Shown here: positions 1 through 20,788 of the stretch, piece by piece
Position numbering within the stretch: position 1 is the first letter of the stretch
Layout: the number at the start of each line of letters is the position of its first letter
Origin: a plasmid
Strand: one strand, 5' to 3'
Length of the DNA stretch: 64,000 nt
Sequence record: NZ_CP072388.1
Made by a program: the position numbers and the translations under genes
Notes under the pieces: generated by a model
Databases searched by the model: none
Told to the model about the DNA's origin: nothing
Seen by the model: the letters and a program-made list of their open reading frames with translations, nothing else

Positions 1-958
1 CGTCGTCCTGGCCCCAGCCATGGATCGCGCCCAGGTGCTGACCTGGGCAGCCCGGGCCGAGGCCGGCTCCGAGCACCCGCTCGCCCGACCCATCCTGGAG
101 GCAGCAGCCGCGGAGGGGCTGGCCACGTCGGGGCTGCCCGAGTTCACCGAGCCCGTGCCTGGCAAGGGCATCACTGCCACCATCGGCGGGCGCCGGGTCC
201 TCATCGGCAACGTGGCGCTGCTGGAGCAGTACGGCGTCGCGGACACTGTTGGCGCCGGGCAGGCCGCTGAGGAGCTCGCCGCAGCGGGCAGGACGGCGAT
301 GATCGTGGCCGTGGAGGATGCGGTGGCTGGTGTGGTCGCGGTGGCTGATGAGGTCCGTCCCGACGCGGCGCAGATGGTCGCCCGTCTGCACGACGCCGGG
401 GTGAAGAAGGTGGTCATGCTCACCGGTGACGCCCCGCTGGTGGCGAAGGCAGTTGGTGCGGCGACCGGGGTCGATGAGGTCCGCGCCGGCCTGCTGCCCG
501 AGGACAAGCTCGACGCGGTCGCGGACCTGCAGCGTCAGGGTCACGTCGTGGCCATGGTCGGTGACGGCGTCAACGACGCCCCGGCCCTGGCCACCGCCGA
601 TATCGGCGTAGCCATGGGTGCGGCCGGCTCGGCCGTGGCCGTAGAGACCGCCGACATCGCCCTCATGGGCGACAACCTGCTCAAGCTCCCCGAAGCGATC
701 GGCCTGGCCCGGCGCACCGTGAACAACATGCGCCAGAACATCACCATCGCCCTGATCACCGTGGCCGTGCTGCTGGCCGGAGTGCTGCTCGGCGGAGTGA
801 CCATGTCCATCGGGATGCTCGTCCACGAAGCCTCGGTCCTGGTCGTGATCGTCAACGCCATGCGCTTGCTGCGCCGCCACCAGGACACCACCAGCACCAC
901 GGCGACACCTTCCGCGCCAGCCACCGCCGCACCGATCCCAGCTGCGGTCCGGTCCTGA
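1..958 (+). CDS. Heavy-metal translocating P1B-type ATPase, C-terminal fragment (5' part lies upstream of window)
   Basis: Open frame to window edge. MVGDGVNDAPALATADIGVAMG hinge motif, C-terminal TM helices, stop at 956-958. Confidence 0.85.
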   Translation, partial: VVLAPAMDRAQVLTWAARAEAGSEHPLARPILEAAAAEGLATSGLPEFTEPVPGKGITATIGGRRVLIGNVALLEQYGVADTVGAGQAAEELAAAGRTAMIVAVEDAVAGVVAVADEVRPDAAQMVARLHDAGVKKVVMLTGDAPLVAKAVGAATGVDEVRAGLLPEDKLDAVADLQRQGHVVAMVGDGVNDAPALATADIGVAMGAAGSAVAVETADIALMGDNLLKLPEAIGLARRTVNNMRQNITIALITVAVLLAGVLLGGVTMSIGMLVHEASVLVVIVNAMRLLRRHQDTTSTTATPSAPATAAPIPAAVRS

Positions 959-1054
959 CCCTCTACCCCGGGCGGGACGCCTCATCCACCGTCCCGGCCA
1001 GGCGCGGATGTATCACCGCCGGGTAAGCCCGGCACAACCACAACAGGAGGAATC

Positions 1055-1486
1055 ATGAGTAACGAAGAACACTTCACCATCGAGGGCAACGTCGAGCACT
1101 TCACCATCGCGCGGGTCGCCCAGGACAATCCCGACTTCCGCCGGGTGCTGTGGACCGGCCAGCACGCCCAGATCGTCATCATGACGATCTCCGCCGGTGG
1201 CGAGATCGGTGAGGAGGTCCACGAGCACACCGACCAGATCCTGACCTTCGTCAGCGGGGCCGGTCAGGCCGACCTCAACGGCCATACCCACCCGATCGAG
1301 GCCGGTGACCAGTGCGCCGTCCCCGCCGGCGCCCGGCACAACTTCCGCAACACCGGCGACGAGCCGCTCGTGCTCTACACCATCTACTCCCCGCCCGAGC
1401 ACGCGGCCGACGGCGCCTACCCCACCAAGGAAGAAGCCGACGCCGCCGAGGCCGCTGGCCAGGACGAACCTCCCACCGCCGCCTGA
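1055..1486 (+). CDS. Cupin-domain protein
   Basis: 143 aa; RBS aggagg 8 nt upstream; two His-containing cupin motifs (GEEVHEHTDQ...PAGARHNFRNTG). Confidence 0.7.
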   Translation: MSNEEHFTIEGNVEHFTIARVAQDNPDFRRVLWTGQHAQIVIMTISAGGEIGEEVHEHTDQILTFVSGAGQADLNGHTHPIEAGDQCAVPAGARHNFRNTGDEPLVLYTIYSPPEHAADGAYPTKEEADAAEAAGQDEPPTAA

Positions 1487-1573
1487 CCGGCCATCCCCGC
1501 GCAGCGAACTCAGCGGCTGTTGGCCGCACCTGTCTCACCCGCTTCGAACACACAGCAGAAGGAGAAGAACCCC

Positions 1574-2488
1574 ATGTCCAAGGTGTACGTATTCACCGAC
1601 TTCGGCGGCCCCGAGACCCAGGCACTCATCGACCGTCCAGCGCCGCAGCCCGGCCCCGGTGAGCTCGCCGTCCGGGTCCGCGCCGCCGGTGTCAACCCCG
1701 TCGACTACAAGATCCGCGCCGGCCGCTACCGTCGGGACCAGCCGTTGCCGGCCCCCATGGGTCAGGAGGTCTCCGGTGTCGTCACCGCCCTCGGTGAGGG
1801 AGTCGAAAGCTTCGCCGTGGGCGACGAGATCCTCGGCCCTGTGGTCCCGGACTACGGCGCCTTCGCCGAGGACACCCTCGTGCGCGCTACCGATGCCGTG
1901 GCCAAGCCGGACGAGATCGCCTTCGCCGACGCGGCCACCATCCCCGTCGCCGGGGCCACCGCCTACGACGCCACCCACCAAATCGAGCTCGAGCCCGGCC
2001 AGCAGCTCCTCATCCTCGGGGCCGGCGGCGGTGTCGGACTCATGGCCGCCCAGATCGGCAAGGTCCACCAGTTCACCGTCATCGGCATCGCCTCGCAGGC
2101 CAAGCGCGAGATCGTTCAAGCCACCGGAGCAACGTTCATCCCCTCCGGTGCAAATGTCGCCGACCAGGTGCGCCAGATCGCCCCCGAGGGGGTAGACCTG
2201 ATCCTGGACCTCGTCGGTGGCGATGCCCTGCGTCAGGTCGCCGGACTCGTCACCGACCCGGCCAGGATCATCTCCGCCGCCGACCCCGACACCGTCACCG
2301 AGCTCGGCGGCAGTCCCCTGAAGCGCACCACCGAGGCACTGGAGAAGATCACCGGCGTCATCGAATACAACCTCGTCGACCCCAACGTCTCGGCCCTCTA
2401 CCCGCTGGAGGATGCGGGCGAAGCCATTGCTGCGGTCGAGAGCGGCCACGCCACCGGCAAGATCGTCATCCAGCCTCACAACGCCTGA
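1574..2488 (+). CDS. NADPH:quinone oxidoreductase / zinc-type medium-chain dehydrogenase
   Basis: MSKVYVF...GELAVRVRAAGVNPVDYKIRAG plus GAGGGVG Rossmann motif. Start moved to ATG 1574 behind RBS gaaggagaag. Confidence 0.8.
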   Translation: MSKVYVFTDFGGPETQALIDRPAPQPGPGELAVRVRAAGVNPVDYKIRAGRYRRDQPLPAPMGQEVSGVVTALGEGVESFAVGDEILGPVVPDYGAFAEDTLVRATDAVAKPDEIAFADAATIPVAGATAYDATHQIELEPGQQLLILGAGGGVGLMAAQIGKVHQFTVIGIASQAKREIVQATGATFIPSGANVADQVRQIAPEGVDLILDLVGGDALRQVAGLVTDPARIISAADPDTVTELGGSPLKRTTEALEKITGVIEYNLVDPNVSALYPLEDAGEAIAAVESGHATGKIVIQPHNA

Positions 2489-2620
2489 CGCGGGTTGACC
2501 GGTTGCGCATGTGAAGCACCTGGGCCGGGCCCGGTAGCACCGCGAGCACCCTCGTCATCGGCGTCAGCTGACCCGGCCGCCACACAACCCCGATAGAACC
2601 CCGCCATATAACGGCGCAAG

Positions 2621-2645
2621 TGTCAGATCCCGAAGTCGCGTGCAC
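2621..2645. repeat. Transposon terminal inverted repeat (IRt side): tgtcagatcccgaagtcgcgtgcac
   Basis: Starts TGTCA, 17/25 identical to the Tn5053 IR. Followed by a second related repeat (gcaagttcggtgctgcgtgcat) that is a candidate extra TniA-binding site. Confidence 0.55.
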
Positions 2646-2695
2646 AGGTGACCTGCAAGTTCGGTGCTGCGTGCATGGGAGTGTGAGCTGCCGGC

Positions 2696-4438
2696 GTGTC
2701 CGTACCCGTACGCACGACCGGCACGTTGTTCCATAGTCCTGTGCACGACGAGGCGGTCGATGAGGATCGCGTTGCCGAGCGAGATCTGCTGACCGTCCCG
2801 GATGAGGTGTGGGCGGTGGCGGTGCGCCGGGCGGAGGTGATCGCCCCGCTCGCCGAGGCGGGCCGGGCCGGTGGCGAGGCGGTGGACAGCGCGGCCGAGC
2901 TCCTGGGTGTCTCGCGGCGTCAGGTGTACGTGCTGCTGCGCCGGTGGCGCGAGGGCGGTCGCGTGGTTTCGGCCCTGGTCCCAGGCCGTTCGTCCGGCGG
3001 CCGCGGCGGGCGGCGACTGCCGGCCGACGTGGAGGCGATCCTCGCGGAGGTGCTGCCCCGGGAGTACCTGACCAGGCAGCACAGGACCACCGCGGCGGTC
3101 CACCGCGAGATCGTCCGGGCCTGTCGGCGGCGCGGGTTGCCGGCACCCTCGCGCGGCGCCGTCGAACGGCGGATCGCCGGGCTGGACCCGCAGGCTGCCG
3201 CGACGGCGCGGGAGGGCCCGGACGGGGCCCGGTCCCTGGCGTCGGCCGGCGGGCAGGTGCCGCCGGTGAGCGGGGTGCTGGAGCAGGTGCAGATCGACCA
3301 CACCGTCGTGGATTTGGTCGTGGTCGACGAGCGGCACCGCCTGCCGATCGGGCGGCCGTACGTGACGGTCGGGATCGACGTCTTCTCCCGGTGCATCGTC
3401 GGGCTGGTGATCACGTTGGAGGCGCCCTCGGCGCTGTCGGCGGGGCTCTGTCTGGCGCACATGGTCACCGACAAGCAGGCCTGGCTCGAGCGCCTCGGGA
3501 CCGAGGCCGCCTGGCCGATGGCCGGCAAGCCCGGCGAGCTGTACCTGGACAACGCCGCGGAGTTCAAAAGCGAGGCACTCCGGCGCGGGTGCGAGGAGCA
3601 CGGCATCAAGTTGCGCTACCGCCCGCCGGGGCGTCCGCACTACGGCGGCATCGTCGAGCGGGTCGTGGGCACGCTGATGGAGATGGTCCACGAGCTGCCG
3701 GGCACGACGTTCTCCAACCCGGCCCAGCGCGGCAGCTACGACTCCGACGCCAAGGCGGTCCTGACGCTCGCGGAGCTGCAGCGATGGCTGGCGCTGGCGG
3801 TGGCGAGCTACCACGGGCAGGTCCACGGCACGACGCGGCAGACCCCGCAGGCCCGCTGGGCCGCCGCCACTACCGGGGCGGCACCGATGACGGTCACCGA
3901 CGAGACGGCGTTCCTGGTGGACTTCCTGCCGGTGATCCGCCGGTCCCTGACCCGCACCGGGTTCGTCATCGACCACGTGCACTACTTCAGCGACGCGCTC
4001 AAGCCGTGGATCGCCCGCCGCGACCGGCTGGACCGGTTCGTGATCCGCCGCGACCCGCGCGACATCAGCCGCATCTGGGTGCTCGACCCCGAGGGCGGGG
4101 CCTACCTGCCGGTGCCCTACCGGACCCTGTCACGCCCGGCGGTGAGCGCGTGGGAGCATCGTGCCGCGCTCGAGCGGCTGCACGCCGAGGGACGGGCACA
4201 GGTCGACGAGGACGCGTTGTTCCGGATGGTCGAGCAGATGCGCACGATCACCGAGACCGCCCGGGCCACCACGCGCAGGGCCCGCCGTGACGCCGAACGA
4301 CGCCACCGCAACCCGCCGGCGGCCGCCGCACCGCCGACCATGCCTGCGTGCCCGCCCGAGGACGTCCCGGCGGGCCGACAAGCAGAGGACCGGATGGACG
4401 CCGACGCGGTTCCGTTCGAGGTGATCGAGCAGTGGTGA
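2696..4438 (+). CDS. tniA: Transposase TniA (DDE, Mu/rve-like)
   Basis: 580 aa. LPDEVWAVAVRRAEVIAPL, QIDHTVVDLVVVD, LYLDNAAEFKSEALRRGCEEHGIKLRYRP and C-terminal FEVIEQW all typical of Tn5053 TniA. Confidence 0.9.
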   Translation: MSVPVRTTGTLFHSPVHDEAVDEDRVAERDLLTVPDEVWAVAVRRAEVIAPLAEAGRAGGEAVDSAAELLGVSRRQVYVLLRRWREGGRVVSALVPGRSSGGRGGRRLPADVEAILAEVLPREYLTRQHRTTAAVHREIVRACRRRGLPAPSRGAVERRIAGLDPQAAATAREGPDGARSLASAGGQVPPVSGVLEQVQIDHTVVDLVVVDERHRLPIGRPYVTVGIDVFSRCIVGLVITLEAPSALSAGLCLAHMVTDKQAWLERLGTEAAWPMAGKPGELYLDNAAEFKSEALRRGCEEHGIKLRYRPPGRPHYGGIVERVVGTLMEMVHELPGTTFSNPAQRGSYDSDAKAVLTLAELQRWLALAVASYHGQVHGTTRQTPQARWAAATTGAAPMTVTDETAFLVDFLPVIRRSLTRTGFVIDHVHYFSDALKPWIARRDRLDRFVIRRDPRDISRIWVLDPEGGAYLPVPYRTLSRPAVSAWEHRAALERLHAEGRAQVDEDALFRMVEQMRTITETARATTRRARRDAERRHRNPPAAAAPPTMPACPPEDVPAGRQAEDRMDADAVPFEVIEQW

Positions 4439-5346
4439 ACAACGACCTGGCCCCGGCCGACCTGGACCACCTGCACGACAGCGCCCGGGCGCTGGCCCGG
4501 CTCCCGGCCGAGGAACGGGTCCGGCACGTGCGCGCGGACCGGTGGATCGGCTACTCCCGTGCCACCGCGGCCCTGGACCGCTTGGAGACGTTGTACGCGT
4601 GGCCCGGCCGGCAACGGATGCCCAACCTGTTGCTGGTCGGCCCGACGAACAACGGCAAGTCCATGATCATCGAGAAGTTCCGCCGCCTCCACCCGCCCAC
4701 CTCACACGCGGACCGGGAGGAGATCCCGGTCCTGGTCGTGCAGATGCCCTCCGAACCGTCGGTGATCCGGTTCTACGTCGCGCTGCTCGCCACGCTCGGG
4801 GCACCGCTACGCCCGCGTCAGCGCCTGGCCGACATGGAGCCGATGGCGTTGGCGCTGCTGCGAGCCGCGGGAGTACGCGTGCTGGTCATCGATGAGCTGC
4901 ACAACGTCCTCGCCGGGCGGTCCGACACCCGCCGGGAGTTCCTCAACCTCATCCGCTTCCTCGGCAACGAGCTGGGCATCCCGCTGGTTGGGGTCGGCAC
5001 CCGCGAGGCATACCTGGCCATCCGCTCCGACGACCAGCTCGAGAACCGCTTCGAACCCTTCACCCTGCCCCGGTGGGAACCCGACCAGGAGACACGGTCG
5101 CTGCTGGCCAGCTTCGCCGCCGCCTTCCCGCTGCGCCGCCGCTCGACCATCGCCACCGAGGAGATGACCCGCTACCTGCTGACCCGCAGCGAGGGCACCA
5201 TCGGCGAGCTCACCCACCTGCTCGTCGACGCCGCCGTGGCCGCGATCGAGTCCGGCGAGGAGGCCATCAACCAACGCGCCCTCCTCATGGCGCCCTACGC
5301 CGGCCCCACGGAACGACGCCGGATGTTCGAACGCGAGCTCGCATGA
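4435..5346 (+). CDS. tniB: Transposition ATPase TniB (AAA+)
   Basis: GTG start overlaps tniA stop (GTGA). Walker A GPTNNGKS; DHLHDSARALARLPAEERVRHVRADRWIGY typical of TniB. Confidence 0.9.
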   Translation: MNNDLAPADLDHLHDSARALARLPAEERVRHVRADRWIGYSRATAALDRLETLYAWPGRQRMPNLLLVGPTNNGKSMIIEKFRRLHPPTSHADREEIPVLVVQMPSEPSVIRFYVALLATLGAPLRPRQRLADMEPMALALLRAAGVRVLVIDELHNVLAGRSDTRREFLNLIRFLGNELGIPLVGVGTREAYLAIRSDDQLENRFEPFTLPRWEPDQETRSLLASFAAAFPLRRRSTIATEEMTRYLLTRSEGTIGELTHLLVDAAVAAIESGEEAINQRALLMAPYAGPTERRRMFERELA

Positions 5347-6641
5347 CCCGTCGATGGCCGCTGCACCCGCCACCGGGCGACGGAGAGGCGCTGTCCTCCT
5401 GGCTCAACCGACTGGCCGAGATCTACGGGCTCAGCGTCGAGGAACTGATCCGGCACGACCTTCTCCCGCCGGGCGCCGACCCGATAATCTACGACGGCGG
5501 TGCCCTGGACCTGGACCCGCCACCCGGAGTGCTCACCGCCCTCCACCGGCGCACCGGAGTGCCCCTGGGCGAGCTGCGCCAGATGACGATCGCCGGCTGG
5601 GCGCCCTGGCTCCTCGACACCCTGGACGTCGAACCGGAGGCCGGGGCGGCGCTCGACACCTACCTCCACCAGGACTCGGTGCTCCTCACCGCCAAGGAAC
5701 GCCCCCGCCGGCAGGTGCCCGGCTGGCGCGCCTGGCTGCCCTCGGACCTCAGACGCGAACCGATTCGCCGGGCCTGCCCGACCTGCCTGAGCACCACCAC
5801 GGCCGGCACCCCCGGCTTCACCCTGGTCTCCCAGTTGCCGCTCACGCTCAGCTGCTCGCAGCACGGCTGCCGCCTCGAACCCGCCTTCGGCGCCCTCGGC
5901 GGCTTCGTCGCCTGGGCGAAGCAGGACACGAATGCCACCGCCGCACCGGTCCCGGTCGTCGCCATGGACGCGCTCACCCACGAAGGTCTGCACACCGGCC
6001 TCGTCACCCTGCCCCGCCGCCGAGTGCACGTCGGGATGTGGTTCCGTCTCCTACGCACCCTGATCGACGAGCTCTCCACCCCCGTCTCGATGCTGCGCGT
6101 CCGTTCCCGGCACACCATGCAGCACCTCTGGCACGTGACCGGTCATCCGCCGCGGGCCGGCATGGCGGGCCCCTGGCGCCCCTACGAGGCGCTGCCGTGG
6201 CCGCAGCAGCGAATGCTCCTCGAGGCCGCCGCCACCACCCTGCAACTGGTCGAGGCCGGCGACGTGACCGCCCACGGCACCCTCGGCCATCTCCTGACCC
6301 CCGAGCCCTACCGGCCCGTTCCCGACGGCAGCACACCGCCCCAGCGCCGCCGTGACCACTGGCAGGAGATCAAGGACGAGATGAACCGAGCCATCGCCCG
6401 CGCCCAGCGCGACCCCGCCGCCGCCCGCCAGCTGCTGGCCACTCTCACCGCCCTGACCCGCAGCGAGACCACATTCCGGCGCACCCGCGAGGACCTGGTC
6501 GCCCTCGGCGTCCCCGAACGCCACCTCCCACGAACCCGGGACGATGTGCACGCCCGTGACGCTCCACCCGTCCAAGAGTGCGCGCTCGTCACATCCGAAG
6601 CGACGGCACCTTTGCACGACGTAGAATACGTGACCGGTTAA
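5343..6641 (+). CDS. tniQ: TniQ transposition targeting protein
   Basis: ATG overlaps tniB stop (ATGA). MTRRWPLHPPPGDGEALSSWLNRLAEIYGL typical TniQ N-terminus with zinc-finger cysteines (C..C...C..C). Confidence 0.8.
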   Translation: MTRRWPLHPPPGDGEALSSWLNRLAEIYGLSVEELIRHDLLPPGADPIIYDGGALDLDPPPGVLTALHRRTGVPLGELRQMTIAGWAPWLLDTLDVEPEAGAALDTYLHQDSVLLTAKERPRRQVPGWRAWLPSDLRREPIRRACPTCLSTTTAGTPGFTLVSQLPLTLSCSQHGCRLEPAFGALGGFVAWAKQDTNATAAPVPVVAMDALTHEGLHTGLVTLPRRRVHVGMWFRLLRTLIDELSTPVSMLRVRSRHTMQHLWHVTGHPPRAGMAGPWRPYEALPWPQQRMLLEAAATTLQLVEAGDVTAHGTLGHLLTPEPYRPVPDGSTPPQRRRDHWQEIKDEMNRAIARAQRDPAAARQLLATLTALTRSETTFRRTREDLVALGVPERHLPRTRDDVHARDAPPVQECALVTSEATAPLHDVEYVTG

Positions 6642-6719
6642 GTGACACATCTCCTCCGGAGAATCCTCCGGATGCGGACTGTCACGTAATCGGTCGAATA
6701 AGTGATGGAGGTGACGGCG
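6642..6719. promoter_or_regulatory. Probable res (resolution) region between tniQ and tniR
   Basis: Only non-coding gap in the tni module. Contains short dyads (tcctccgga/gaatcctccgga, tgtcacgtaat). Position matches res of the Tn402 family. Confidence 0.35.
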
Positions 6720-7334
6720 ATGCTCGTCGGATACATGCGTGTCTCGAAGGCCGACGGGTCCCAGACCACCGACCTGCAACGCGACGCCCTCCTCGCCGCC
6801 GGCGTCGAGCCCGACGCCCTGTACGAGGACAAGGCCTCCGGCAAGAAGGACGACCGCCCCCACCTCGCCGCCTGCCTGAAGGCCCTTCGCGCCGGCGACA
6901 CCCTGGTGGTCTGGAAGCTCGACCGCCTCGGCCGCGACCTGCGCCACCTGGTGAACATCGTCCACGACCTCACCCAGCGCGGCATCGGCCTGAAGGTCCT
7001 CACCGGCCAGGGCGCCGCCATCGACACCACCACCGCCTCCGGCAAGCTCGTCTTCGGCATCTTCGCCGCCCTGGCCGAGTTCGAGCGTGAGCTCATCTCC
7101 GAACGCACCATCGCCGGCCTGGCCGCCGCCCGCGCCCGCGGCCGCAAAGGCGGACGCCCCTACAAGATGACCCCCGCCAAGCTCCGCCTCGCCATGGCCT
7201 CCATGGGACAACCCGACACCAACGTCACCGACCTGTGCAAGGAGCTCGGTATCACGCGCCAGACCCTGTACCGGCACGTGTCTCCCACCGGGGAGCTACG
7301 TCCCGACGGGCGAAAGGTCCTCCCCGGCAACTGA
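6720..7334 (+). CDS. tniR: Serine recombinase / resolvase TniR
   Basis: MLVGYMRVSKADGSQTTDLQRDAL with catalytic Ser, C-terminal HTH. RBS ggaggtg upstream of ATG 6720. Confidence 0.85.
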   Translation: MLVGYMRVSKADGSQTTDLQRDALLAAGVEPDALYEDKASGKKDDRPHLAACLKALRAGDTLVVWKLDRLGRDLRHLVNIVHDLTQRGIGLKVLTGQGAAIDTTTASGKLVFGIFAALAEFERELISERTIAGLAAARARGRKGGRPYKMTPAKLRLAMASMGQPDTNVTDLCKELGITRQTLYRHVSPTGELRPDGRKVLPGN

Positions 7335-7464
7335 ACCGGCCGGCCCAGCGGCTGGTAGGCGGACACCAGCTGTGCCCTTCGTTGTCATCCCTGGTCGACT
7401 CGCCCGGGCGCGCGGCGATCGATGCCAGTCCTACACGAAGTCAAGTTCTGATAGTTTCTGCCAC

Positions 7465-7854
7465 TTAGAGGTAGCGGCAGACCTGGTCTGGGGCGCAGGT
7501 GGCGGGGTCGGCGGTGGTGGCTGTGTCCCGCAGCTCCGCGACGGTCTGGCGCAGTGCCTGCAGATCGGCGATCTGCCGGTCGAGGTCGACCACGCGGGTG
7601 CTGAGCAGGCCGGCGACGTGTGCGCACGGGGCCTCGCCGGCGTCGCGGATGGCCAGGATCTGGCGCAGCTGGGCGAGGCTGAGCCCCGCGGTGCGGCCGC
7701 GGCGGATGAAGTCCAGCCGGCCCATCACGTCCTGGCCGTAGTCGCGGTACCCGCCCGCGGTGCGCTCTGGCGTGGGGAGCAGCCCCTGGTCCTCGTAGAA
7801 GCGCAGCGTCTTCGTCGTCGTCCCGGCCGCCGCCGCGACCTCACCGATCCGCAT
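7465..7854 (-). CDS. merR: MerR-family metal-responsive regulator (mercury MerR-like, 3 conserved Cys)
   Basis: MRIGEVAAAAGTTTKTLRFYEDQGLL HTH. Cys at ~77, 120, 126 like MerR C79/C114/C123. Divergent from merA. Confidence 0.8.
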   Translation of the reverse strand: MRIGEVAAAAGTTTKTLRFYEDQGLLPTPERTAGGYRDYGQDVMGRLDFIRRGRTAGLSLAQLRQILAIRDAGEAPCAHVAGLLSTRVVDLDRQIADLQALRQTVAELRDTATTADPATCAPDQVCRYL

Positions 7855-7881
7855 CCATCTCTCCTTCGTGTGCCGCCGGAC

Positions 7882-7914
7882 TTGACCTTCCCCTGCACTG
7901 GAAGGTCCAGTCTG
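7882..7914. promoter_or_regulatory. mer operator/promoter: -35 TTGACC with 8-bp dyad gaccttcc-N8-ggaaggtc in the spacer
   Basis: Perfect dyad between the -35 and -10 elements in the merR/merA divergent intergenic region. This is classic MerR operator geometry. Confidence 0.5.
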
Positions 7915-7955
7915 GTCCTGTCGCCACCTCGGCGGCAACGAGCGGGAGGGATCAG

Positions 7956-9389
7956 ATGGGACACACCGAGGTCGACCTCGCGGTCATCGGTTCGGGTGGC
8001 GGCGCCTTCGCGGCCGCGATCGCGGCGACCAACCTGGGCAAGCGGGTCCTCATGGTGGAGCGGTCGACGATCGGGGGGACGTGCGTGAACACCGGCTGCA
8101 TCCCCTCCAAGGCGCTGATCGCCGCGGCCGAGGCCCACCACGTGGCGCTGGACTCGGGCCGGTTCCCCGGCATCGCCACGTCCGCCGCCCGTGCGGACAT
8201 GTCCGGGCTGGTCGGCGGCAAGCGGGCGCTGGTGGAGACCATGCGGGCGGAGAAGTACGTCGACCTGGCCGCCGAGTACGGCTGGGAGCTGCGCCAAGGC
8301 GACGCCACCTTCGCCGCCACGGCGGACGAGCCGCTGCTCGAGGTGACCGGTCCGGACGGCACGGTCGAGACGGTGCGCGCCGCGCACTACCTCGTGGCCA
8401 CCGGCTCCACGCCGTGGGCGCCGCCCATCGCCGGGCTCGAGACCATCGACTACCTGACCTCGACGACGGCGATGGAGCTCGATGAGGTGCCCGACACGCT
8501 CCTGGTCCTCGGCGGCGGCTACGTCGCACTGGAACAGGCCCAGCTCTTCGCGCGGCTCGGCTCGCAGGTCACCATGCTGGTCCGCTCCCGCCTGGCCTCC
8601 GGGGAGGAGCCCGAGGTCTCCAAGGCGCTGCTCGGGGTGTTCGCCGACGAGGGCATCCGGGTCGTGCGCCGGGCGACCGTCTCGGCCCTGCGCACCGACG
8701 ACGCCACCGGCGAGGTGGTCGCGACCGCCACGGTCTCGGGCGGGGTCGAGGAGTTCCGCGCCGCCAAGGTGCTGGTCGCGACGGGCCGTCGCCCCGTCAC
8801 CGACGGACTGAACCTGGACGCCGTGGGCGTGAGCACCGGCGAGCTGGGCGAGGTCATCGTCAACGGCCACCTGGCCAGCACCAACCCCCGAATCTGGGCG
8901 GCCGGGGACGTCACCGGGCACCGGGAGTTCGTCTACGTCGCCGCCTCCCACGGCACCCTCGTGGTCGAGACCGCCTTCGCCGGCGCCGGCCGGGAGGTCG
9001 ACTACCGCCACCTGCCCCGGGTGGTGTTCACCAGCCCCGCCGTCGGTGCGGTGGGGATGACCGAGCGGGAGGTCGTGGCCGCCGGGATTCCGTGCGACTG
9101 CCGCGTGCTGCCGCTGGAGTACGTCCCCCGCGCCCTGGTCAACCGGGACACCCGTGGCTTCGTCAAGGTCGTCGCCCACGCGCACACCGGGCAGATCCTT
9201 GGCCTGACCGCGGTCGCCAAGGACGCCGGCGAGCTGGCCGCCGCCGGCGTGTACCTCCTCGAAGCCGGCATGACCGTCGACCAGGTCGCCCACATGTGGG
9301 CGCCCTACCTGACCATGGCCGAGGGCATCAAGCTCGCCTGCCAGTCCTTCACCACCGACGTCTCCAAGCTCTCCTGCTGCGCCGCCTGA
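7956..9389 (+). CDS. merA: Mercuric reductase MerA (core enzyme, no N-terminal HMA domain)
   Basis: GGTCVNTGCIPSK redox-active disulfide, FAD/NAD Rossmann motifs, C-terminal vicinal Cys pair (KLSCCAA). Confidence 0.9.
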   Translation: MGHTEVDLAVIGSGGGAFAAAIAATNLGKRVLMVERSTIGGTCVNTGCIPSKALIAAAEAHHVALDSGRFPGIATSAARADMSGLVGGKRALVETMRAEKYVDLAAEYGWELRQGDATFAATADEPLLEVTGPDGTVETVRAAHYLVATGSTPWAPPIAGLETIDYLTSTTAMELDEVPDTLLVLGGGYVALEQAQLFARLGSQVTMLVRSRLASGEEPEVSKALLGVFADEGIRVVRRATVSALRTDDATGEVVATATVSGGVEEFRAAKVLVATGRRPVTDGLNLDAVGVSTGELGEVIVNGHLASTNPRIWAAGDVTGHREFVYVAASHGTLVVETAFAGAGREVDYRHLPRVVFTSPAVGAVGMTEREVVAAGIPCDCRVLPLEYVPRALVNRDTRGFVKVVAHAHTGQILGLTAVAKDAGELAAAGVYLLEAGMTVDQVAHMWAPYLTMAEGIKLACQSFTTDVSKLSCCAA

Positions 9390-9435
9390 CCACAACCGCC
9401 GCAGACCCGCGGCACCAATAGGAAGGGATTTCCCC

Positions 9436-10110
9436 GTGAACGATGAAACCAAAACCCTCACCGAGCGACTGGCCACACAGGACTCCGGCCTGGAGACCTG
9501 GCTCTGGCTGCCGCTGCTCCGCCTCCTCGCCTCCGGCGCCCCGGTCGAAGTCGCCGACCTGGCGGCTGCCACCGGCCGGCCGGCCGAGGAGGTCCGCCAG
9601 GCGCTGGCCGCTGTTCCCGACACCGAGTACGACGAGGACGGGCGCATCGTGGGTCTCGGACTGACCCTGCGGCCGACCCGCCACCACTTCGCTGTCGACG
9701 GCCGGCAGCTGTACACCTGGTGCGCGCTGGACACCCTGATCTTCCCTGCGCTCCTCGACAAAGCGGTGACGATCGAATCGCTCTCCCCGACGACGCGGAC
9801 CCCGGTGCGGGTGCACGCCGGGCCGGACGGAGTCACCAAGGTGGAGCCGCCCACCGCGGTGGTCTCCCTGGTCAACCACCCCGCCGACATGTCCTCGGTG
9901 CGTTCGGCGTTCTGCAACCAGGTCCACTACTTCGCCTCCGCCGAGGACGCCCGGCCCTGGCTCGAGAGGCACCCCGACGCCGAGGTAACTGCCGTCAAGG
10001 ACGCCTACCGGCTCGCCCTCGCCATGACCACGAACATGCTCGACGAGCACACCCCGGTCGGCCACGACATCCCCCGCGACACCACCGGCCAAAACTCCCG
10101 GTGCTGCTGA
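9436..10110 (+). CDS. merB: Organomercurial lyase MerB
   Basis: WCALDTL (Cys/Asp) and AFCNQVHYF (Cys) correspond to the MerB catalytic C96/D99/C159 triad. Confidence 0.85.
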   Translation: MNDETKTLTERLATQDSGLETWLWLPLLRLLASGAPVEVADLAAATGRPAEEVRQALAAVPDTEYDEDGRIVGLGLTLRPTRHHFAVDGRQLYTWCALDTLIFPALLDKAVTIESLSPTTRTPVRVHAGPDGVTKVEPPTAVVSLVNHPADMSSVRSAFCNQVHYFASAEDARPWLERHPDAEVTAVKDAYRLALAMTTNMLDEHTPVGHDIPRDTTGQNSRCC

Positions 10111-10122
10111 GCTGCTGCCACC

Positions 10123-10154
10123 CGGGGCCGGGGCCGGGGCCGGCCCCGGCCCCC
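10123..10154 (+). terminator. GC hairpin formed by a (GGGGCC)n / (GGCCCC)n palindrome after merB
   Basis: cggggccggggccggggccggccccggccccc immediately follows the merB stop. A stable stem is evident but there is no T-tract. Confidence 0.4.
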
Positions 10155-10339
10155 AGCGAGGAGAGGGACCTGCGCTCTCTTCGACGGAAGAACGGGACCC
10201 GGAAATCCCTCCTCGGCACTGCTGCGCCGGGCCGGCCGCACCGCGCCGGAAGTTGGACCGGTTGCGCGCGGGCCGCGGGCCAGGGAAGGCGCGGTGCGGA
10301 TCGCCAGCGCCGGCACAACGCCCTGCTCGTGACCATCGG

Positions 10340-11689
10340 CTACAGCTCGAGGCGCTGGAGGGCCTGGAGGTAGCCCTCGTTGTAGGTGGGGAACTGGGCG
10401 ACCTGGTCCAGGAGCCGGTCCACCGGTATCTGCTCACGGACGGCCAGCGCGGCGGTGTGGATCCACTCACTGGCCTGGGGGCCGAGCGCCCAGGCGCCGA
10501 CGAGCACCCGGCGGTCGCGGTCGGCGAGCACACCCAGGTGCCCGCGCGGGTCGCGTTCGTAGGTCCACGGCCTAGCGATCGCGTCAGCGAGGTCGACCTC
10601 CGTGGACGCCACCGGCAGGCCCCGGTCCCGGGCCTGCCGGCTGGTCATCCCCACCGCGGCGATCTCCGGGTCGGCGAACACCACCCGGGGGATGCCGTCG
10701 TACCGGGCCGTGCGCGACCTGCCCAGGATGTTGTCAGCCACCACACGGGCCTGGTACTTCGCGACGTGCGTGAACAGCATGACGCCGGTGACGTCTCCCA
10801 GTCCCCAGACGCCGGCGCCCGCGTGGCACTTATCGTCGACGACGAGCTCGCCTCTCTCGCCGACCTGCACCCCGACCGTGTCCAGCCCGAGGTCGGCGGT
10901 GCGTGGGCGCCGCCCGGCGCCCACGACGATGACATCGCAACGCACCTCGCCGCCCCCGTCGACTTCCACCACCGTGTCCTGGCCTTCGCGCCGGACCCGG
11001 GCGGCGGTGGCACCGGTGCGCACGTCGATGCCCTCATCCCTGACGTACCGCTCGGTGAGTTCTCCGACGCGCGGGTCCTCCCGAGGCAACAGCCGCTCAG
11101 TCTGTTCGAGGATGGTGACCTCGGCGCCGTACCGGTGCAGGAACAGGCTCAGCTCCACGCCGACGGCGCTGCCGCCGACGATCACCACGCGGTCGGGAAT
11201 CTCGGTCAGCGTGGTGGCCTCGCGGTTCGTCCACACCGGCGCCTGGTCCAGCCCCTCGATGGGCGGGACGACGGGATCGGACCCGGTGGCGACGACGATG
11301 TGCTCGGCCGTCAGCCGCTGCCCTTCGACATCCACCGAGCCCGGAGCGGTGATCCGGGCGGCGCCCTTGATTACGGTGGCGCCGGACTTCTCGTAGCCGC
11401 TGACCTGCTTGCTGTCATCGAGGTGGCGGATCATGTAGTCGCGGTAGTCGCGCGTGGCCGGCCAGTCCAGCCCGGCACCGTCCACCCCCGCGGCCCGGTC
11501 GACTCCGCCCTTGGCCTCCGGAGGGCGCAACACCGTCTTGGAGGGGATGCATGCCCAGTACGCGCACTCCCCACCGATGAGCTCACGTTCAACGACGGCG
11601 ACCCGCTTGCCCGCCTCCAGCAGCTTGCTGGCAACCACCTCACCCCCCGGGCCCATCCCGATGACAATGGCATCAAATCGATCATCCAT
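10340..11689 (-). CDS. Class-I pyridine nucleotide-disulfide oxidoreductase (MerA-like / dihydrolipoamide dehydrogenase family)
   Basis: GGECAYWACIPSK CxxxxC redox centre, two Rossmann motifs (GMGPGG, GGSAVG), dimerisation domain. No C-terminal CC pair. Confidence 0.75.
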   Translation of the reverse strand: MDDRFDAIVIGMGPGGEVVASKLLEAGKRVAVVERELIGGECAYWACIPSKTVLRPPEAKGGVDRAAGVDGAGLDWPATRDYRDYMIRHLDDSKQVSGYEKSGATVIKGAARITAPGSVDVEGQRLTAEHIVVATGSDPVVPPIEGLDQAPVWTNREATTLTEIPDRVVIVGGSAVGVELSLFLHRYGAEVTILEQTERLLPREDPRVGELTERYVRDEGIDVRTGATAARVRREGQDTVVEVDGGGEVRCDVIVVGAGRRPRTADLGLDTVGVQVGERGELVVDDKCHAGAGVWGLGDVTGVMLFTHVAKYQARVVADNILGRSRTARYDGIPRVVFADPEIAAVGMTSRQARDRGLPVASTEVDLADAIARPWTYERDPRGHLGVLADRDRRVLVGAWALGPQASEWIHTAALAVREQIPVDRLLDQVAQFPTYNEGYLQALQRLEL

Positions 11690-12093
11690 CCGTTGACCTC
11701 CTCTTCAGGGGTGGCGACGTGCACCGACTCAACGGCCGGCTGCACAACGGCCCACCCTCGCACCAGCCGTCTGAAACGGTGAGCGTAAGACGCGCTAGGC
11801 CATCAGGCCCATCAGGCCTACACGTGCACCGATGGCTTCGGCCGGCGGCACCCGGCCGGCATAGGCGCAGCCGTCGTCGACACCCGAGCGGGGGAAGTGG
11901 GCCCTCTGGCGGACTTCTCCGCTGGCCATCACGTGGTGGGCGTGCGCAAGGCACTCAAGACGGAGGATGGCGAGGTCGGTCCCGAGAGAAGAGAAGCCAG
12001 AGCCCGCCAGGTGCCCCAATGACCTGCCCTGGACCCCAGTATCGCCGCTAGTGGGGCCGGGCCAGCCGATCCTGAAGTCAACTTCGGACATCC

Positions 12094-12118
12094 GTGCAGG
12101 CGACTCCGAACATTGACA
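12094..12118. repeat. Transposon terminal inverted repeat (IRi side): gtgcaggcgactccgaacattgaca
   Basis: Reverse complement matches the left IR at 17/25. Ends ...GAACATTGACA, compare Tn5053 ...GAAAATGACA. Confidence 0.55.
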
Positions 12119-12146
12119 GCGACCGCCTCGACACGCCGAGACAACA

Positions 12147-12206
12147 TGTCGCAGAACTAGTGTCCGGAAACCCCCGGTGTCGCAGAACGCGGTCCGGGGG
12201 TTTTCG
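12147..12206. promoter_or_regulatory. res-like site upstream of resolvase: 2x TGTCGCAGAAC direct repeats interleaved with ccggaaaccccc / gggggttttcg inverted arms
   Basis: Seen directly in sequence, 15-75 nt upstream of the serine recombinase start. The arrangement is typical of Tn3-family res subsites. Confidence 0.45.
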
Positions 12207-12220
12207 CTACCGTCGCGGCC

Positions 12221-12802
12221 ATGGCACACGTCTACGGGTATGCCCGGGTCTCCACCACGGCGCAGAACCTCGACGCCCAGGTCGACGCCCTCACCGGCAC
12301 CGGCGGCGTCGACGAGCGCGACGTCGTCGTGGAAAAGGCCTCCGGGCGCCGTGAGGACCGGCCCGAGCTCGCCCGACTGCTCGCCGGGCTACGCGAGGGA
12401 GACACGCTCGTCGTGACGAAGCTCGACAGGCTCGGCCGCTCGGCCGCGCACGTCGCACGCCTCGTGCGCGACCTCGACGACCGCGGCGTCACGCTCCGGT
12501 CGCTGTCGGAGACGATCGACACCTCGAGCGCGACCGGGCGGCTCATGGTGCACGTACTCGCCGCCGTCGCGCAGATGGAAGCCGACCTCGCCCGCGAACG
12601 CACCCTCGACGGCCTCGCGGCCGCGCGCGCCCGGGGCAGGGTCGGCGGCCGCCCGAGCGTCATGACGCCGGACCGTGTCGCGGCCGCGCGCGTAGCGCTG
12701 GCCGGCGGCCAGTCACGCGCGGCCGTCGCGCGCGCACTCGGTGTCTCCCGAGACACCCTGTACCGCCACCTCGCCACGATCACGGCTGGGGGTGCCTCAT
12801 GA
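12221..12802 (+). CDS. Serine recombinase (resolvase/invertase family)
   Basis: MAHVYGYARVSTTAQNLDAQ catalytic Ser motif, C-terminal HTH (SRDTLYRHL). Confidence 0.85.
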   Translation: MAHVYGYARVSTTAQNLDAQVDALTGTGGVDERDVVVEKASGRREDRPELARLLAGLREGDTLVVTKLDRLGRSAAHVARLVRDLDDRGVTLRSLSETIDTSSATGRLMVHVLAAVAQMEADLARERTLDGLAAARARGRVGGRPSVMTPDRVAAARVALAGGQSRAAVARALGVSRDTLYRHLATITAGGAS

Positions 12803-13974
12803 GCGATTCCGGTTCCGTCTTCGGCCCTGGGCCGCGTCACGATGCCTCGCCGGCCTCGCACCGGGAGTCCTCAGCTCAGTTCCTCGAGCGCGTCGCCGGG
12901 GACTACTGGCAGGCGGTGCGCGACCTCCTCGACGACTGGCTAGGCCGCGTGCCGCCACCGGAGCGGCGCGATCTGATGGGCCGCCTCCGGCGCGCAGAGG
13001 ACCACACCTTCCGGGCGGCGTTCCTCGAGCTCTACCTGCACGAGTCGCTGGTCCAGTCGGGCTTCGACGTGGAGTTTCATCCCGAGGTGCCGGGCGTCCG
13101 TCGACGGCCAGACTTCCTCGCCCTCTCCACGAGCTCGACGTTCTACCTCGAGGCGCGGTCGCCGAGCACGGCCACGAACAAGCGAGCGAGTGCCGGGCGG
13201 GTTGGTGACGTCCACGACGCGCTCAACAGGGTCGACAGCCCGAACTTCTGGCTCTGGATCGATGTCGAAGCAGAGGGCGGCCGACCTCTCGCCACCAAGG
13301 GTCTACGGGCACAGCTCGAGGGCTGGCTCGCAGGCCTCGACCCGGACAGCGAGACCTCCCACGAGGAGCTGCCGTCCTACCACTGGGAGCGGGAAGGTTG
13401 GCAGATCAGGTTCCGCGCCCTGCCCAAGAGTCCTGCCGCGCGGGGGAGCGGAACCGGGCTGCGTCCCCTCGCGGTCTACGGGGGAAGTCATGCGGAGTGG
13501 GTCGACGACGCCGGCGTGCTCAAGGACGCACTGTCCGACAAGGGCAACGCGTACGGATTACCGGAACACGGCCTCGTCGTCGCGATCGGGACCTCGTTCT
13601 TCTCGCGCGACGACTTCGGCGTCAAGAACGCGCTATACGGCCCCGAGCAATGGGTGCTTGATCGCGAGGGCCGCGAGTTCGTCGAGGTCACCAGGGGACC
13701 CGGTGGGTACTTCCATGCTGGCAACGGTCAGTGGGCGCACCAGCACGTGTCCGGGGTCTTGATCGTGAACAACCTCCACCACTGCGGGATCCCCCAGCAG
13801 AGACCGACCTTCTGGGCCAACCCACAAGCGAGCCGCGAGGTGGTGGCGCTAGATGCCTGGGACGTCGTCGCGTTGCGCGACGGTCACCTCGAGCGAACGC
13901 ACGCCGCCGTCGGCCACCGTGAGCTCTTCCAGCTTCCCGAACCGTGGCCCCCGGGCGAGGCGTTCCCGAAGTAG
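12799..13974 (+). CDS. Hypothetical protein, possible PD-(D/E)xK-like nuclease fold (uncharacterised)
   Basis: ATG overlaps resolvase stop (ATGA). Motif E..PDFLAL...YLEAR resembles a degenerate PD-(D/E)xK. No other recognisable domain. Confidence 0.45.
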   Translation: MSDSGSVFGPGPRHDASPASHRESSAQFLERVAGDYWQAVRDLLDDWLGRVPPPERRDLMGRLRRAEDHTFRAAFLELYLHESLVQSGFDVEFHPEVPGVRRRPDFLALSTSSTFYLEARSPSTATNKRASAGRVGDVHDALNRVDSPNFWLWIDVEAEGGRPLATKGLRAQLEGWLAGLDPDSETSHEELPSYHWEREGWQIRFRALPKSPAARGSGTGLRPLAVYGGSHAEWVDDAGVLKDALSDKGNAYGLPEHGLVVAIGTSFFSRDDFGVKNALYGPEQWVLDREGREFVEVTRGPGGYFHAGNGQWAHQHVSGVLIVNNLHHCGIPQQRPTFWANPQASREVVALDAWDVVALRDGHLERTHAAVGHRELFQLPEPWPPGEAFPK

Positions 13975-13984
13975 GGTCCTCGCC

Positions 13985-14236
13985 GTGGTGTACCCGTCGC
14001 GTCCCGTGCTCGAGGTGTTGCCGCAGTTCCGCGGTGACCTCAAGAACGGCTACAACCGATTCCAGCGCGACAGGTTCGACCGGTTCGTGGCCGAGCAGTA
14101 CGTCGCGGGGCGGTCGCTGCGCGAGATCGGGGAGCTGACCGGGCGCACGCAGACGGCCGTGCGCGCCAGCCTCGACCGCACGGGCACGCCGCGGCGCGGA
14201 CGGGGTGCGCAGCGCGTGTCCGAGGGGGCCCGGTGA
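13985..14236 (+). CDS. Small HTH-containing protein (start uncertain)
   Basis: RSLREIGELTGRTQTAVRASLDR helix-turn-helix. Stop overlaps the next gene start (ATGA). Confidence 0.35.
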   Translation: MVYPSRPVLEVLPQFRGDLKNGYNRFQRDRFDRFVAEQYVAGRSLREIGELTGRTQTAVRASLDRTGTPRRGRGAQRVSEGAR

Positions 14237-14703
14237 CGGCGAGCGGGATGACCTCGTCGCAGCTCGCGGCGGAGTTCGGGGTGACGCGCGCGGCGGTGAA
14301 CAAGGTGTTGCGTTCGACGTACGGCCCGGCCGAGGGCGCTCGGCGGCTCCTCAACGATCAGCAGGTGGCCGAGGTGCGCGCACACTTCGCCGCGGTCGCG
14401 GCACGGCGCGCCGCCCGTGAGCAGCCGCGCACGTGCGTGGTCGAGGAGTGCGAGCGGCCGGGGATCGGCGAGCGCGGGTGGTGCACGTCGCACCGGGAGC
14501 GGTGGCGCCGGGCGGGCACGTTCGAGGCCGGCAGGCCAGGCGCGAACCAGCTCGCCAAGACGCACTGCCCCCAGGGGCACGAGTACTCGCCCGAGAACAC
14601 GTTCTCGTACCCCTCGGAGCCCGGGCGGCGGCGCTGCTTCACCTGCCGGCACGGACGCCCACCCGAGCCCGCCGACAGCACGCCGGAGGCGCCTGCCGGT
14701 TGA
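14233..14703 (+). CDS. HTH + HNH-type zinc-ribbon DNA-binding protein (actinophage-like)
   Basis: N-terminal HTH (SSQLAAEFGVTRAAVNKVL). CVVEECERPGIGERGWCTSHRERWRRAG plus a second C/H cluster. A paralog lies at 60279-60605. Confidence 0.55.
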   Translation: MTASGMTSSQLAAEFGVTRAAVNKVLRSTYGPAEGARRLLNDQQVAEVRAHFAAVAARRAAREQPRTCVVEECERPGIGERGWCTSHRERWRRAGTFEAGRPGANQLAKTHCPQGHEYSPENTFSYPSEPGRRRCFTCRHGRPPEPADSTPEAPAG

Positions 14704-14775
14704 CGGCCTGAACGCGCGGGCGCGCGGGAGGGTGCCGGCGAGGCGTGAGGTCGCGGGCCGGGTGATCGTGAGGGT

Positions 14776-17946: not shown

Positions 17947-18040
17947 GAACCGCACGCCGTCGACGCTTCCGCGTCGACCGTTTCGCCCCCTTCCAGGGGC
18001 GCGTGTGGTTGCTGAGTACCGAGTTGAGAGGTCCATTCCC

Positions 18041-20778: not shown

Positions 20779-20788
20779 CACGCGAAGG

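Follow-up and report, generated by a model that had tools for sequence, protein, structure and literature searches.

Mercury transposons of the Tn402/Tn5053 family

Tn5053, Tn502, Tn512 and Tn5058, found in Pseudomonas and its relatives, carry proteobacterial mer operons with merT and merP, with or without merF and merC, and encode a MerA with an N-terminal domain. Members of the Tn402/Tn5053 family transpose replicatively with a preference for res sites, inserting with IRo, the inverted repeat (IR) of the cargo end, nearest the target resolvase gene and generating 5-bp direct repeats, although some members are found without direct repeats following post-insertion events (PMC7765201). A survey of Tn7-like transposons reported a Micrococcales-dominated community that exchanges elements with Proteobacteria, without describing individual elements (PMC8649781). 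No description of an individual Tn402-family mer transposon from Actinobacteria was found in the literature searched, for which some queries were dominated by taxon-name matches.

Here, a 64,000-nucleotide stretch of record NZ_CP072388.1 (the window, with a G+C content of ~71%) was analysed, in which positions 2621–12118 very probably constitute one intact 9,498-bp (9.5-kb) transposon of the Tn402/Tn5053 family (tniABQ-res-tniR) that is autonomous, recently active and resident in high-GC Actinomycetota. The window was matched to contig JBJXVU010000012.1 of NCBI assembly GCA_046159675.1. Codon-position G+C analysis together with Pfam and NCBIfam scans gave the gene order tniA-tniB-tniQ-res-tniR, followed by a divergently oriented merR, a core merA, merB and FDR2, a second flavoprotein reductase gene. 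This reading is carried by what the sequences show: the gene content with its orthology, the ends of the element, a conserved res, the finding of identical copies at independent locations, the 5-bp duplication of one of these copies and the repeated adjacency of resolvase genes. The element joins an established family of "res-site hunters" and is not a new type of element; the family, its mechanism and the actinobacterial style of the mer operon combined here are all known already, and no change of paradigm is involved. An initial annotation, which had placed a tniABQR transposon with high-GC codon usage at these positions, was upheld in that all of its described parts were found where they had been placed, and the G+C content at third codon positions (GC3) of the element genes is 0.88–0.96. 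A comparison with known plasmids, which that annotation had proposed, bore out the orthology of the tni genes to Tn402 but yielded no full-length copy, as a megablast of the whole element against PLSDB returned module-level matches only, at 70–78% identity.

The tni module and its orthology to Tn402

The tniA gene (2696–4438, plus strand) encodes a 580-aa DDE transposase with Pfam matches to rve, Mu-transpos_C and a helix-turn-helix (HTH) domain, in which the motifs QIDHT, YLDNAAEF and GGIVER can be read. The following gene, tniB (plus strand, 4432–5346, with a GTG start at 4432 or at 4435), encodes a 304-aa AAA+ regulator (Pfam TniB, 262 bits) that possesses both a Walker A motif (GPTNNGKS) and a Walker B motif (LVIDELH). 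A start at 4435 would produce a GTGA overlap with the tniA stop codon, and tniQ (5343–6641, plus strand), which encodes the 432-aa target-selection protein (Pfam TniQ, 74 bits), overlaps tniB through ATGA; both overlaps are present in the sequence, as had been noted initially. A gap of 78 bp then separates tniQ from tniR (6720–7334, plus strand), the gene of a 204-aa serine resolvase (Pfam Resolvase, 156 bits) with its catalytic Ser in MRVSK.

The region assigned as the element's own res (6609–6719, plus strand) spans the end of tniQ and the gap before tniR, with conserved blocks at 6609–6647 and 6680–6708. Alignment of the ~110 bp upstream of tniR from the window, Tn402 and four actinobacterial relatives showed 40 invariant columns, including TAAGTGACA and TGTCACnTAAnCG..CGnATAnnTGA, and these invariant blocks appear to resemble resolvase half-sites. 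The res gap and serine resolvase of the initial annotation are both present, with conserved res blocks upstream of tniR.

The genes and ends of Tn402/Tn5090 were taken from the IncP-1 plasmid R751 (Proteobacteria) and compared directly. The identities, over essentially the full length of the proteins, are 58.5% for TniA (residues 20–580), 76.2% for TniB, 42.3% for TniQ and 82.6% for TniR, and the two elements share the order and orientation IRt-tniA-tniB-tniQ-res-tniR-cargo-IR, where IRt denotes the repeat at the tni end. The Tni proteins, whose relationship had been chosen beforehand as the test of the family assignment, are thus orthologous to those of Tn402 at 42–83% identity, and res aligns as well. 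The lower identity of TniQ (42%) may reflect different target resolvases. The two elements differ in their cargo, which is a class 1 integron in Tn402/Tn5090 and a mer module in the window, and in codon usage, with a GC3 of 0.72–0.85 for the Tn402 genes compared with 0.88–0.96 here, where the host is an actinobacterium of 70% G+C.

A scan with TniA, limited to one genome per species, retrieved 75 loci, nearly all in Actinomycetota, with TniA identities of 58–80%. Tn402 is as near to each of the two main actinobacterial clades as these clades are to each other (TniA ~58–69%, TniR ~76–84%), and the actinobacterial elements are therefore full members of the family rather than an outgroup. The uncharacterised tniABQR elements among these loci (L002–L073, from Sanguibacter, Brevibacterium, Kineosphaera, Janibacter, Microbacterium, Arthrobacter and others) have the same module and, like the window element, show the common IR consensus TGTCAATGTCCGAAGTCGTCTGCAC, 5-bp duplications and resolvase adjacency. 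None of them is the window element itself, the best TniA identity being 80%; their cargo differs, and none carries FDR2, although L002 carries merR-merA as the window element does.

Several of these loci deserve a separate mention. Cargo-less relatives of 4.7–4.9 kb from Microbacterium and Arthrobacter, with only tniABQR between their IRs (L012:2941–7834, L014:9895–14832, L049:9812–14529), may represent the minimal form of the actinobacterial lineage. In two Janibacter loci (L010 and L011, ~7000–9950), a merR-merA-resolvase block lies directly outside the IRt of a related element, with another resolvase past IRo, a layout that suggests nested or serial insertions around resolvase genes. One locus in a metagenome-assembled genome labelled Planctomycetales (L034) encodes a TniA 88% and a TniB 96% identical to those of Tn402, and probably represents either contamination in binning or a Tn402-type element of proteobacterial origin rather than a planctomycete element.

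A much more distant relative, likened here by description, is Tn552 of the Gram-positive Staphylococcus, which targets the res sites of plasmids; its products include a DDE transposase, an ATP-binding protein, a serine resolvase and, as cargo, a beta-lactamase, but no TniQ. Tn552 has been grouped with Tn5053 as having terminal repeat arrays (PMC8649781).

Terminal and subterminal repeats

IRt (2621–2645, plus strand, TGTCAGATCCCGAAGTCGCGTGCAC) and IRo (12094–12118, minus strand, read on that strand as TGTCAATGTTCGGAGTCGCCTGCAC) are both 25 bp long. The initial annotation had described imperfect 25-bp repeats identical at 17 of 25 positions; the repeats themselves were confirmed, and the count is corrected to 18/25. 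Compared with Tn402, the window repeats match IRt at 18/25 and IRi at 17/25 positions, and the 25-bp IRs of both elements start with TGTC and end with CTGCAC. To locate the ends by pattern, a degenerate 25-mer, TGTSANNNYYCGRAGTCGNNTGCAC, derived mostly from related elements, was searched with at most two mismatches, and exactly two matches were obtained in the 64-kb window, one at each end of the element and in inverted orientation, where 0.01 would be expected. In addition, a position weight matrix built from the inner 19 bases of the end repeats was scored over ~128,000 positions. The three best scores in the 64 kb were, in order of rank, those of 12094–12112 (within IRo), 2627–2645 (within IRt) and 12072–12090, all of them at the ends of the element.

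The third of these corresponds to an inner repeat at the cargo end (12072–12093, minus strand) that is predicted to bind TniA and forms with IRo a tandem pair that is also seen in relatives. On the tni side, two further possible TniA-binding repeats in the orientation of IRt (2697–2715 and 2728–2746, plus strand) gave matrix scores of 8.3 and 9.8, which lie among the top 16 of the ~128,000 positions but are weak; more distant relatives have clear repeat arrays at the same place of the tni end.

The boundaries are fixed to the base by comparison with other loci. Homology between the window and 17 related loci, as well as the identical copies described below, begins exactly at the TGT of IRt, upstream of tniA. 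At the other end, two metagenome contigs (L086 and L087) end at IRo, and two further loci (L088 and L091) run from IRo into unrelated flanks.

One more repeat-like sequence lies in the gap between tniR and merR (7435–7459, CACGAAGTCAAGTTCTGATAG). It resembles the inner IRo repeat at 15 of 21 positions and could be a relic end that predates the cargo; however, its matrix score is low (5.7) and it does not align with the ends of the cargo-less relatives, and it was treated as a chance match.

The domain content by itself would also accommodate a distant Tn7-like or Mu-like transposon that resembles Tn402 in its domains only and in which the TGTCA repeats are coincidental, since Pfam gives TniA only the generic rve and Mu-transpos_C matches and NCBIfam has no models for TniA, TniB and TniQ. 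Such an origin is extremely improbable, however, given the full-length identity of 42–83% to the Tn402 proteins, the same gene order, the conserved res, the 17–18 of 25 positions shared with the Tn402 repeats (with relatives reaching 23/25 identity to Tn402 IRt in a comparison by eye) and the equidistance of Tn402 and the actinobacterial clades. No gene for a TnsA endonuclease, as found in cut-and-paste Tn7 proper (tnsABCDE), was detected either: there is no extra open reading frame (ORF) between IRt and tniA, and the element proteins match only the families listed here. The window element is thus best placed in the Tn402/Tn5053 family.

Insertion in a resolvase res site and other copies of the element

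Outside the element, 102 bp past IRo, starts the gene of an external serine resolvase of 193 aa, here termed ResX (12221–12802, plus strand; Pfam Resolvase, 148 bits), which is 46–48% identical to the element's TniR. The intervening stretch (12119–12220, plus strand) is assigned to the remainder of the ResX res region and contains two TGTCGCAGAAC repeats, which lie at 12147 and 12178. Between 12131 (GACACGCCGAG) and the ATG of ResX, the window is near-identical to three transposon-free contigs (L079, L080 and L081), with 2–3 differences that all fall in the first ~17 bp, and no difference occurs among the four in the ~86 bp that run from CATGTCGCAGAAC up to the ATG. Among 21 relatives in which both ends could be paired, a resolvase gene starts 91–125 bp past IRo in 10, and 8 show perfect 5-bp duplications. 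Judged from these alignments, the element sits in the res site of ResX, with its cargo end ~100 bp upstream of the external resolvase gene, and this reads as the res-hunting signature of the family, the strongest functional signature at this locus. The target preference is an addition to the initial annotation. Tn5053-type elements are documented to enter res sites, to have IRo closest to the target resolvase gene and to generate 5-bp repeats that are occasionally lost (PMC7765201), and all of these features are matched here.

Copies of the same element were found by exact-protein look-ups. The copy at locus L084 (GCA_001570825.1), which like the window copy is full length with all eight genes, differs from it by four single-nucleotide polymorphisms and one 7-bp indel over 9.5 kb. 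The indel, the only one between the two copies, lies at 10267–10273 in the merB-FDR2 intergenic region. In contrast to this near-identity, the resolvase flank of L084 is only 87–88% identical to that of the window and the DNA past its resolvase gene is unrelated, from which it follows that the two copies were inserted independently. On both sides of the L084 copy stands a perfect 5-bp duplication, GCGGC, located exactly at the IRs, so that the search for the same element elsewhere with a 5-bp target-site duplication, as the initial annotation had proposed, was successful. Upstream of the resolvase gene of L084, the insertion point has a palindromic subsite (TGTCGGA...) on one side and two TGTCGCAGAAC repeats on the other; L080 and L081 carry this site in its transposon-free form, with GCCGC at the corresponding position. 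In both the window and L084, 11 bp separate the element from the conserved GACACGCCGAG.

Further copies come from the loci already mentioned: contig L086 corresponds to 2621–12118 and contig L087 stops at 12118, while in L088 and L091 the element stands next to a different flank, with another resolvase gene ~100 bp away, and homology to the window ends at 12118–12121. Copies with other limits, which the initial annotation had named as a possible refutation, were not what was found, as the independent copies share the exact ends 2621 and 12118.

Two decayed derivatives were also noted (L082 and L085; GCA_040686355.1 and Logan ERR226219), in which homology starts at window position 6693 and an IS30-like gene replaces tniABQ. 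L082 additionally has an IS481-family insertion at the position of window 11799, and its IRo end and resolvase flank are 94% identical to those of the window.

Since a ResX-type resolvase lies on the IRo side in the window, L084, L090 and (at 94% identity) L082, and since the region is a metal-resistance island with tyrosine recombinases and an insertion sequence (IS), one might consider that the mobile unit is larger than 2621–12118 and that the transposon and the ResX module move together within a carrier element. This is very unlikely: the ResX-type flank of L084 has diverged to 87–88% whereas the element is more than 99.9% identical, with unrelated DNA past the resolvase gene; L088 and L091 adjoin a different resolvase, with homology ending at 12118–12121; L086 and L087 break at the IRs; and the 5-bp duplication of L084 lies exactly at the IRs. 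Each of these observations points instead to 2621–12118 as the unit that moves.

The absent duplication of the window copy

Three points weigh against an intact and active element in the window. The window copy has no clean duplication, its flanks GCAAG (left) and GCGAC (right) being identical at 3/5 positions; the palindromic res subsite found next to the L084 copy is missing from its left flank; and the subterminal repeats on the IRt side are detectable only weakly. The mismatch of the flanks had already been observed in the initial annotation, and can now be seen as peculiar to the window copy, since the near-identical L084 copy has the GCGGC duplication. Misplaced boundaries are ruled out as the cause of the absent duplication by the independent copies and contig ends, which agree to the base.

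An explanation is suggested by the transposon-free contigs. L079, L080 and L081 encode a ResX identical to that of the window, but their upstream DNA differs: in the type A site (L080, L081) a palindromic subsite is present, and in the type B site (L079) the 3′ remnant of another gene. The left flank of the window copy (2560–2620) aligns with type B (L079:1–199), while the 11 bp to the right of the element (GCGAC CGCCTC) are those of type A (L080:150–350, L081, L084), so that the switch from one site type to the other falls precisely at the element. Reading L079 as the plain empty counterpart of the window copy accordingly holds only in part, as L079 matches the left flank but lacks the 11 bp right of the element. 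The flanks suggest, as far as the alignments go, that the two sides stem from two variants of the target locus and that a rearrangement took place after insertion; the mismatch would fit either two copies having swapped flanks, through homologous recombination or recombination at res, or a deletion adjoining the element at its IRt end.

The same flank pattern, with its 3/5 identity and its junction of site types coinciding with the element, can be taken to mean that the element is real but that the window copy is a fixed, rearranged relic, which no longer moves from here or which came by recombination rather than transposition; family members lacking direct repeats after post-insertion events have been reported (PMC7765201). 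We regard this as possible but somewhat doubtful, because both IRs, the inner repeat, res and the four tni genes are intact and the copy is essentially identical to the L084 copy with its perfect duplication. In the Tn402 family, moreover, losing the duplication does not impair later transposition. The absent duplication leaves the identification of the element unaffected, and an intact transposon remains the preferred reading of the window copy.

The mer cargo

As in Tn5053, Tn502, Tn512 and Tn5058, the mer cargo of the window element lies between tniR and IRo. Unlike the Tn5053 group as described above (Tn5053 is compared here by description), it consists of merR, a core merA, merB and FDR2, without a transporter gene. 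The merR gene (7465–7854, minus strand) encodes a 129-aa MerR-family regulator with Pfam matches to MerR_1, MerR and MerR-DNA-bind and with Cys77, Cys120 and Cys126, and the nearest solved structure is Bacillus MerR (4ua1, E=1e-20). A predicted divergent mer promoter/operator lies at 7882–7907, with a TTGACC −35 box overlapped by a perfect 8-bp dyad, GACCTTCC-N8-GGAAGGTC (7884–7907), so that the Cys triad and operator dyad of the initial annotation are both present. A simple sigma-70 scan gave nothing at 7882–7907, as expected for a MerR-type promoter with a long spacer in a high-GC host; consensus scans for promoters and terminators likewise found nothing, and an Rfam scan of 1–16000 gave no family.

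The merA gene (7956–9389, plus strand) encodes a 477-aa core mercuric reductase that scores 533 bits against TIGR02053 (cut-off 454) and has the redox-active CVNTGC (GGTCVNTGCIPSK) and the C-terminal Cys pair (SCCAA). No HMA domain was found in MerA or in its upstream in-frame extension, and a hidden HMA domain upstream of merA was rejected, as that frame contains no HMA motif. The 224-aa organomercurial lyase encoded by merB (9436–10110, plus strand) reaches 277 bits against NF009710 (cut-off 193), and its motifs WCALD and FCNQVHYF supply the equivalents of Cys96, Asp99 and Cys159, residues whose roles in MerB have been described (PMC8261052). The core MerA without HMA domain, MerB and second CxxxxC flavoprotein reported initially were all recovered, MerA and MerB above curated cut-offs.

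The same holds for the reported lack of merT, merP and merF: for uptake proteins (MerT, MerP, MerC, MerF, MerE, MerH), no ORF of at least 40 aa with a credible transmembrane segment exists in 7300–12118. The only two hydrophobic windows in this interval are the FAD-binding motif of MerA and one antisense frame, and a hidden transporter is excluded by the transmembrane scan of its frames.

The initial annotation had contrasted this cargo with the classic proteobacterial mer operon. The difference stands, and it can be added that the arrangement is an ordinary one for actinobacteria, the second reductase included. Sequences of merR-merA(-merB) at 75–78% nucleotide identity occur on plasmids of Nocardioides, Rhodococcus, Arthrobacter, Corynebacterium and Micrococcus, and a divergent merR has been described in Actinobacteria (PMC3466566). 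In the plasmid mer loci of Pseudarthrobacter chlorophenolicus (pACHL02), Mycolicibacterium chubuense (pMYCCH.01), Rhodococcus qingshengii (pCP2) and Nocardioides sp. JS614, a divergent MerR-family regulator, core merA, merB and an FDR2 orthologue are clustered as they are here. These plasmid loci usually add ArsR, CcdA and thioredoxin-like genes and sometimes glucose-6-phosphate dehydrogenase, all of which are absent from the window element, and, unlike the latter, they are not bounded by Tn402-type IRs. By its gene content, the cargo would be an actinobacterial-type module for broad-spectrum mercury detoxification, typical for the phylum.

Two features of MerR speak against this reading. On the NCBIfam equivalog model for MerR the protein scores 83 bits, compared with a cut-off of 151, and its best-scoring model is CadR/PbrR, also below cut-off; and the cysteine spacing is Cx5C, not the Cx8C of proteobacterial MerR. 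Because of this sub-cut-off score and spacing, the metal specificity of MerR is assigned from context. Together with the missing transporter, the absence of an N-terminal metal-binding domain in MerA and the absence of the CcdA and thioredoxin-like genes of other actinobacterial mer loci, the MerR scores could indicate that the cargo is not effective mercury resistance, conferring little protection or serving another thiol- or metal-stress role centred on the two flavoproteins. This is unlikely, however, as MerA and MerB exceed their curated equivalog cut-offs with all catalytic cysteines kept, and the transporter-less merR-merA(-merB) arrangement is common on actinobacterial plasmids, with the divergent merR described for the phylum (PMC3466566). 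A mercury-detoxification module is thus the reading retained for the cargo.

Between the convergent merB and FDR2, a G+C-rich palindrome with GGGGCC repeats (10124–10154) can be read from the sequence, and the 7-bp indel between the window and L084 copies lies ~115 bp past it in the same intergenic region. The 404 bp that separate FDR2 from IRo contain, in public annotation, orf98 (11795–12091, minus strand), a doubtful ORF that has no Pfam or NCBIfam match and no homologue in the related loci, and whose GC3 is 0.79, compared with 0.88–0.96 for the real genes.

FDR2, a mer-linked reductase

The last gene of the cargo, FDR2 (10340–11689, minus strand), encodes a 449-aa class I pyridine-nucleotide disulfide oxidoreductase (Pfam Pyr_redox_2 and Pyr_redox_dim) that possesses the CxxxxC motif (GGECAYWACIPSK) and lacks the Cys pair at the C terminus. 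Against the MerA model it reaches 320 bits, compared with the cut-off of 454, and its nearest solved relative is the MerA structure 5x1y. Orthologues at 60–65% aa identity occur on 11 actinobacterial plasmids, and in all seven contexts inspected (L092–L098; Mycobacteriales, Micrococcales and Streptomyces) the orthologue lies inside a mer cluster. It stands beside or just downstream of merA or merB in six of the seven; in Rhodococcus ruber, it is the last gene of a divergent ArsR-TlpA-CcdA operon. The clusters of Pseudarthrobacter chlorophenolicus and Rhodococcus qingshengii also hold genes for a glucose-6-phosphate dehydrogenase and a GH15 protein.

Because FDR2 is linked to merA or merB in 7/7 plasmid contexts, it may tentatively be regarded as an unrecognised functional part of actinobacterial mercury resistance, which would regenerate a mycothiol-type thiol pool or pass reducing equivalents to MerA/MerB. 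The gene is inverted relative to merAB here but co-directional with merA and merB on the other plasmids, and no promoter for FDR2 was identified, two points that count against the overall reading of the element. A search for mer orfIV of Streptomyces lividans gave nothing useful on FDR2.

Surroundings of the element

Upstream of the element lie genes for tyrosine recombinases, a Crp-type regulator, an HMA protein, a P-type ATPase, a cupin and an alcohol dehydrogenase. Downstream follow ResX, a 391-aa protein, an HTH_58 protein, an IS, DUF305 proteins, a P-type ATPase and a UvrD-like helicase, and then release factor 3 (RF3). Directly after ResX, the 391-aa protein, which has no Pfam family, the HTH_58 protein and a 156-aa protein (12799–14703) form a block that is also present in the transposon-free contigs L079–L081. 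The stretch 15257–23145 and L001:1–9800 form a metal-resistance mosaic with two P-type ATPases, an HMA protein, DUF305 and DUF4142 proteins and an IS with DDE_Tnp_1. Further downstream are the housekeeping RF3 gene (29350–31326) and a gene for a large tyrosine recombinase (52427–54973). A megablast of the downstream 25 kb found no related plasmid backbone, and, to judge from its genes, the context of the element looks like a chromosomal metal-resistance island.

Proposed mechanism

We infer the replicative mechanism, the roles of the proteins, their regulation and the resistance phenotype, the steps of transposition from the orthologous systems of Tn5053, Tn502 and Tn402 (summarised in PMC7765201). 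The DDE transposase TniA would bind the terminal 25-bp repeats together with the adjacent subterminal repeats, and the AAA+ ATPase TniB and TniQ would steer the element to a res site that a foreign serine resolvase has bound. Replicative transposition would lead to a cointegrate, which TniR would resolve at the element's own res between tniQ and tniR, and the product would have a 5-bp target duplication and its cargo end (IRo) towards the target resolvase gene. In the cargo, the MerR-family regulator would act on the dyad operator in the divergent promoter. Hg(II), whose entry is presumed to occur without a dedicated transporter, would be reduced by the core MerA to volatile Hg(0) with NADPH as the reductant, MerB would split carbon–mercury bonds, and FDR2 may maintain the thiol pool.

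Significance for the family and its hosts

The identical copies, the empty site, the 5-bp duplication and the repeated resolvase adjacency provide sequence-level proof of Tn402/Tn5053 res hunting in Actinomycetota, the strategy by which class 1 integrons became widespread among Gram-negative pathogens. The element itself is a compact, intact and apparently active candidate for transposition assays in high-GC hosts. The finding also points to FDR2 as a conserved, uncharacterised mer-linked reductase, the sole component here that might hold something new; if its proposed part in mercury resistance is true, the transposon would be a minimal mobile package of regulator, MerA, MerB and FDR2 without a transporter. 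A weaker suggestion than that on FDR2 is that actinobacterial elements could cross-mobilise defective Tn402-type elements such as class 1 integrons, given that up to 23 of 25 positions of their IRs agree with Tn402 IRt and that the identity of their TniR is ~80%. The actinobacterial elements are as near to Tn402 as they are to each other, and may therefore plausibly transmit genes from one phylum to another, or at least mark such exchange; in the present case they carry genes for the detoxification of organomercurials and Hg(II).

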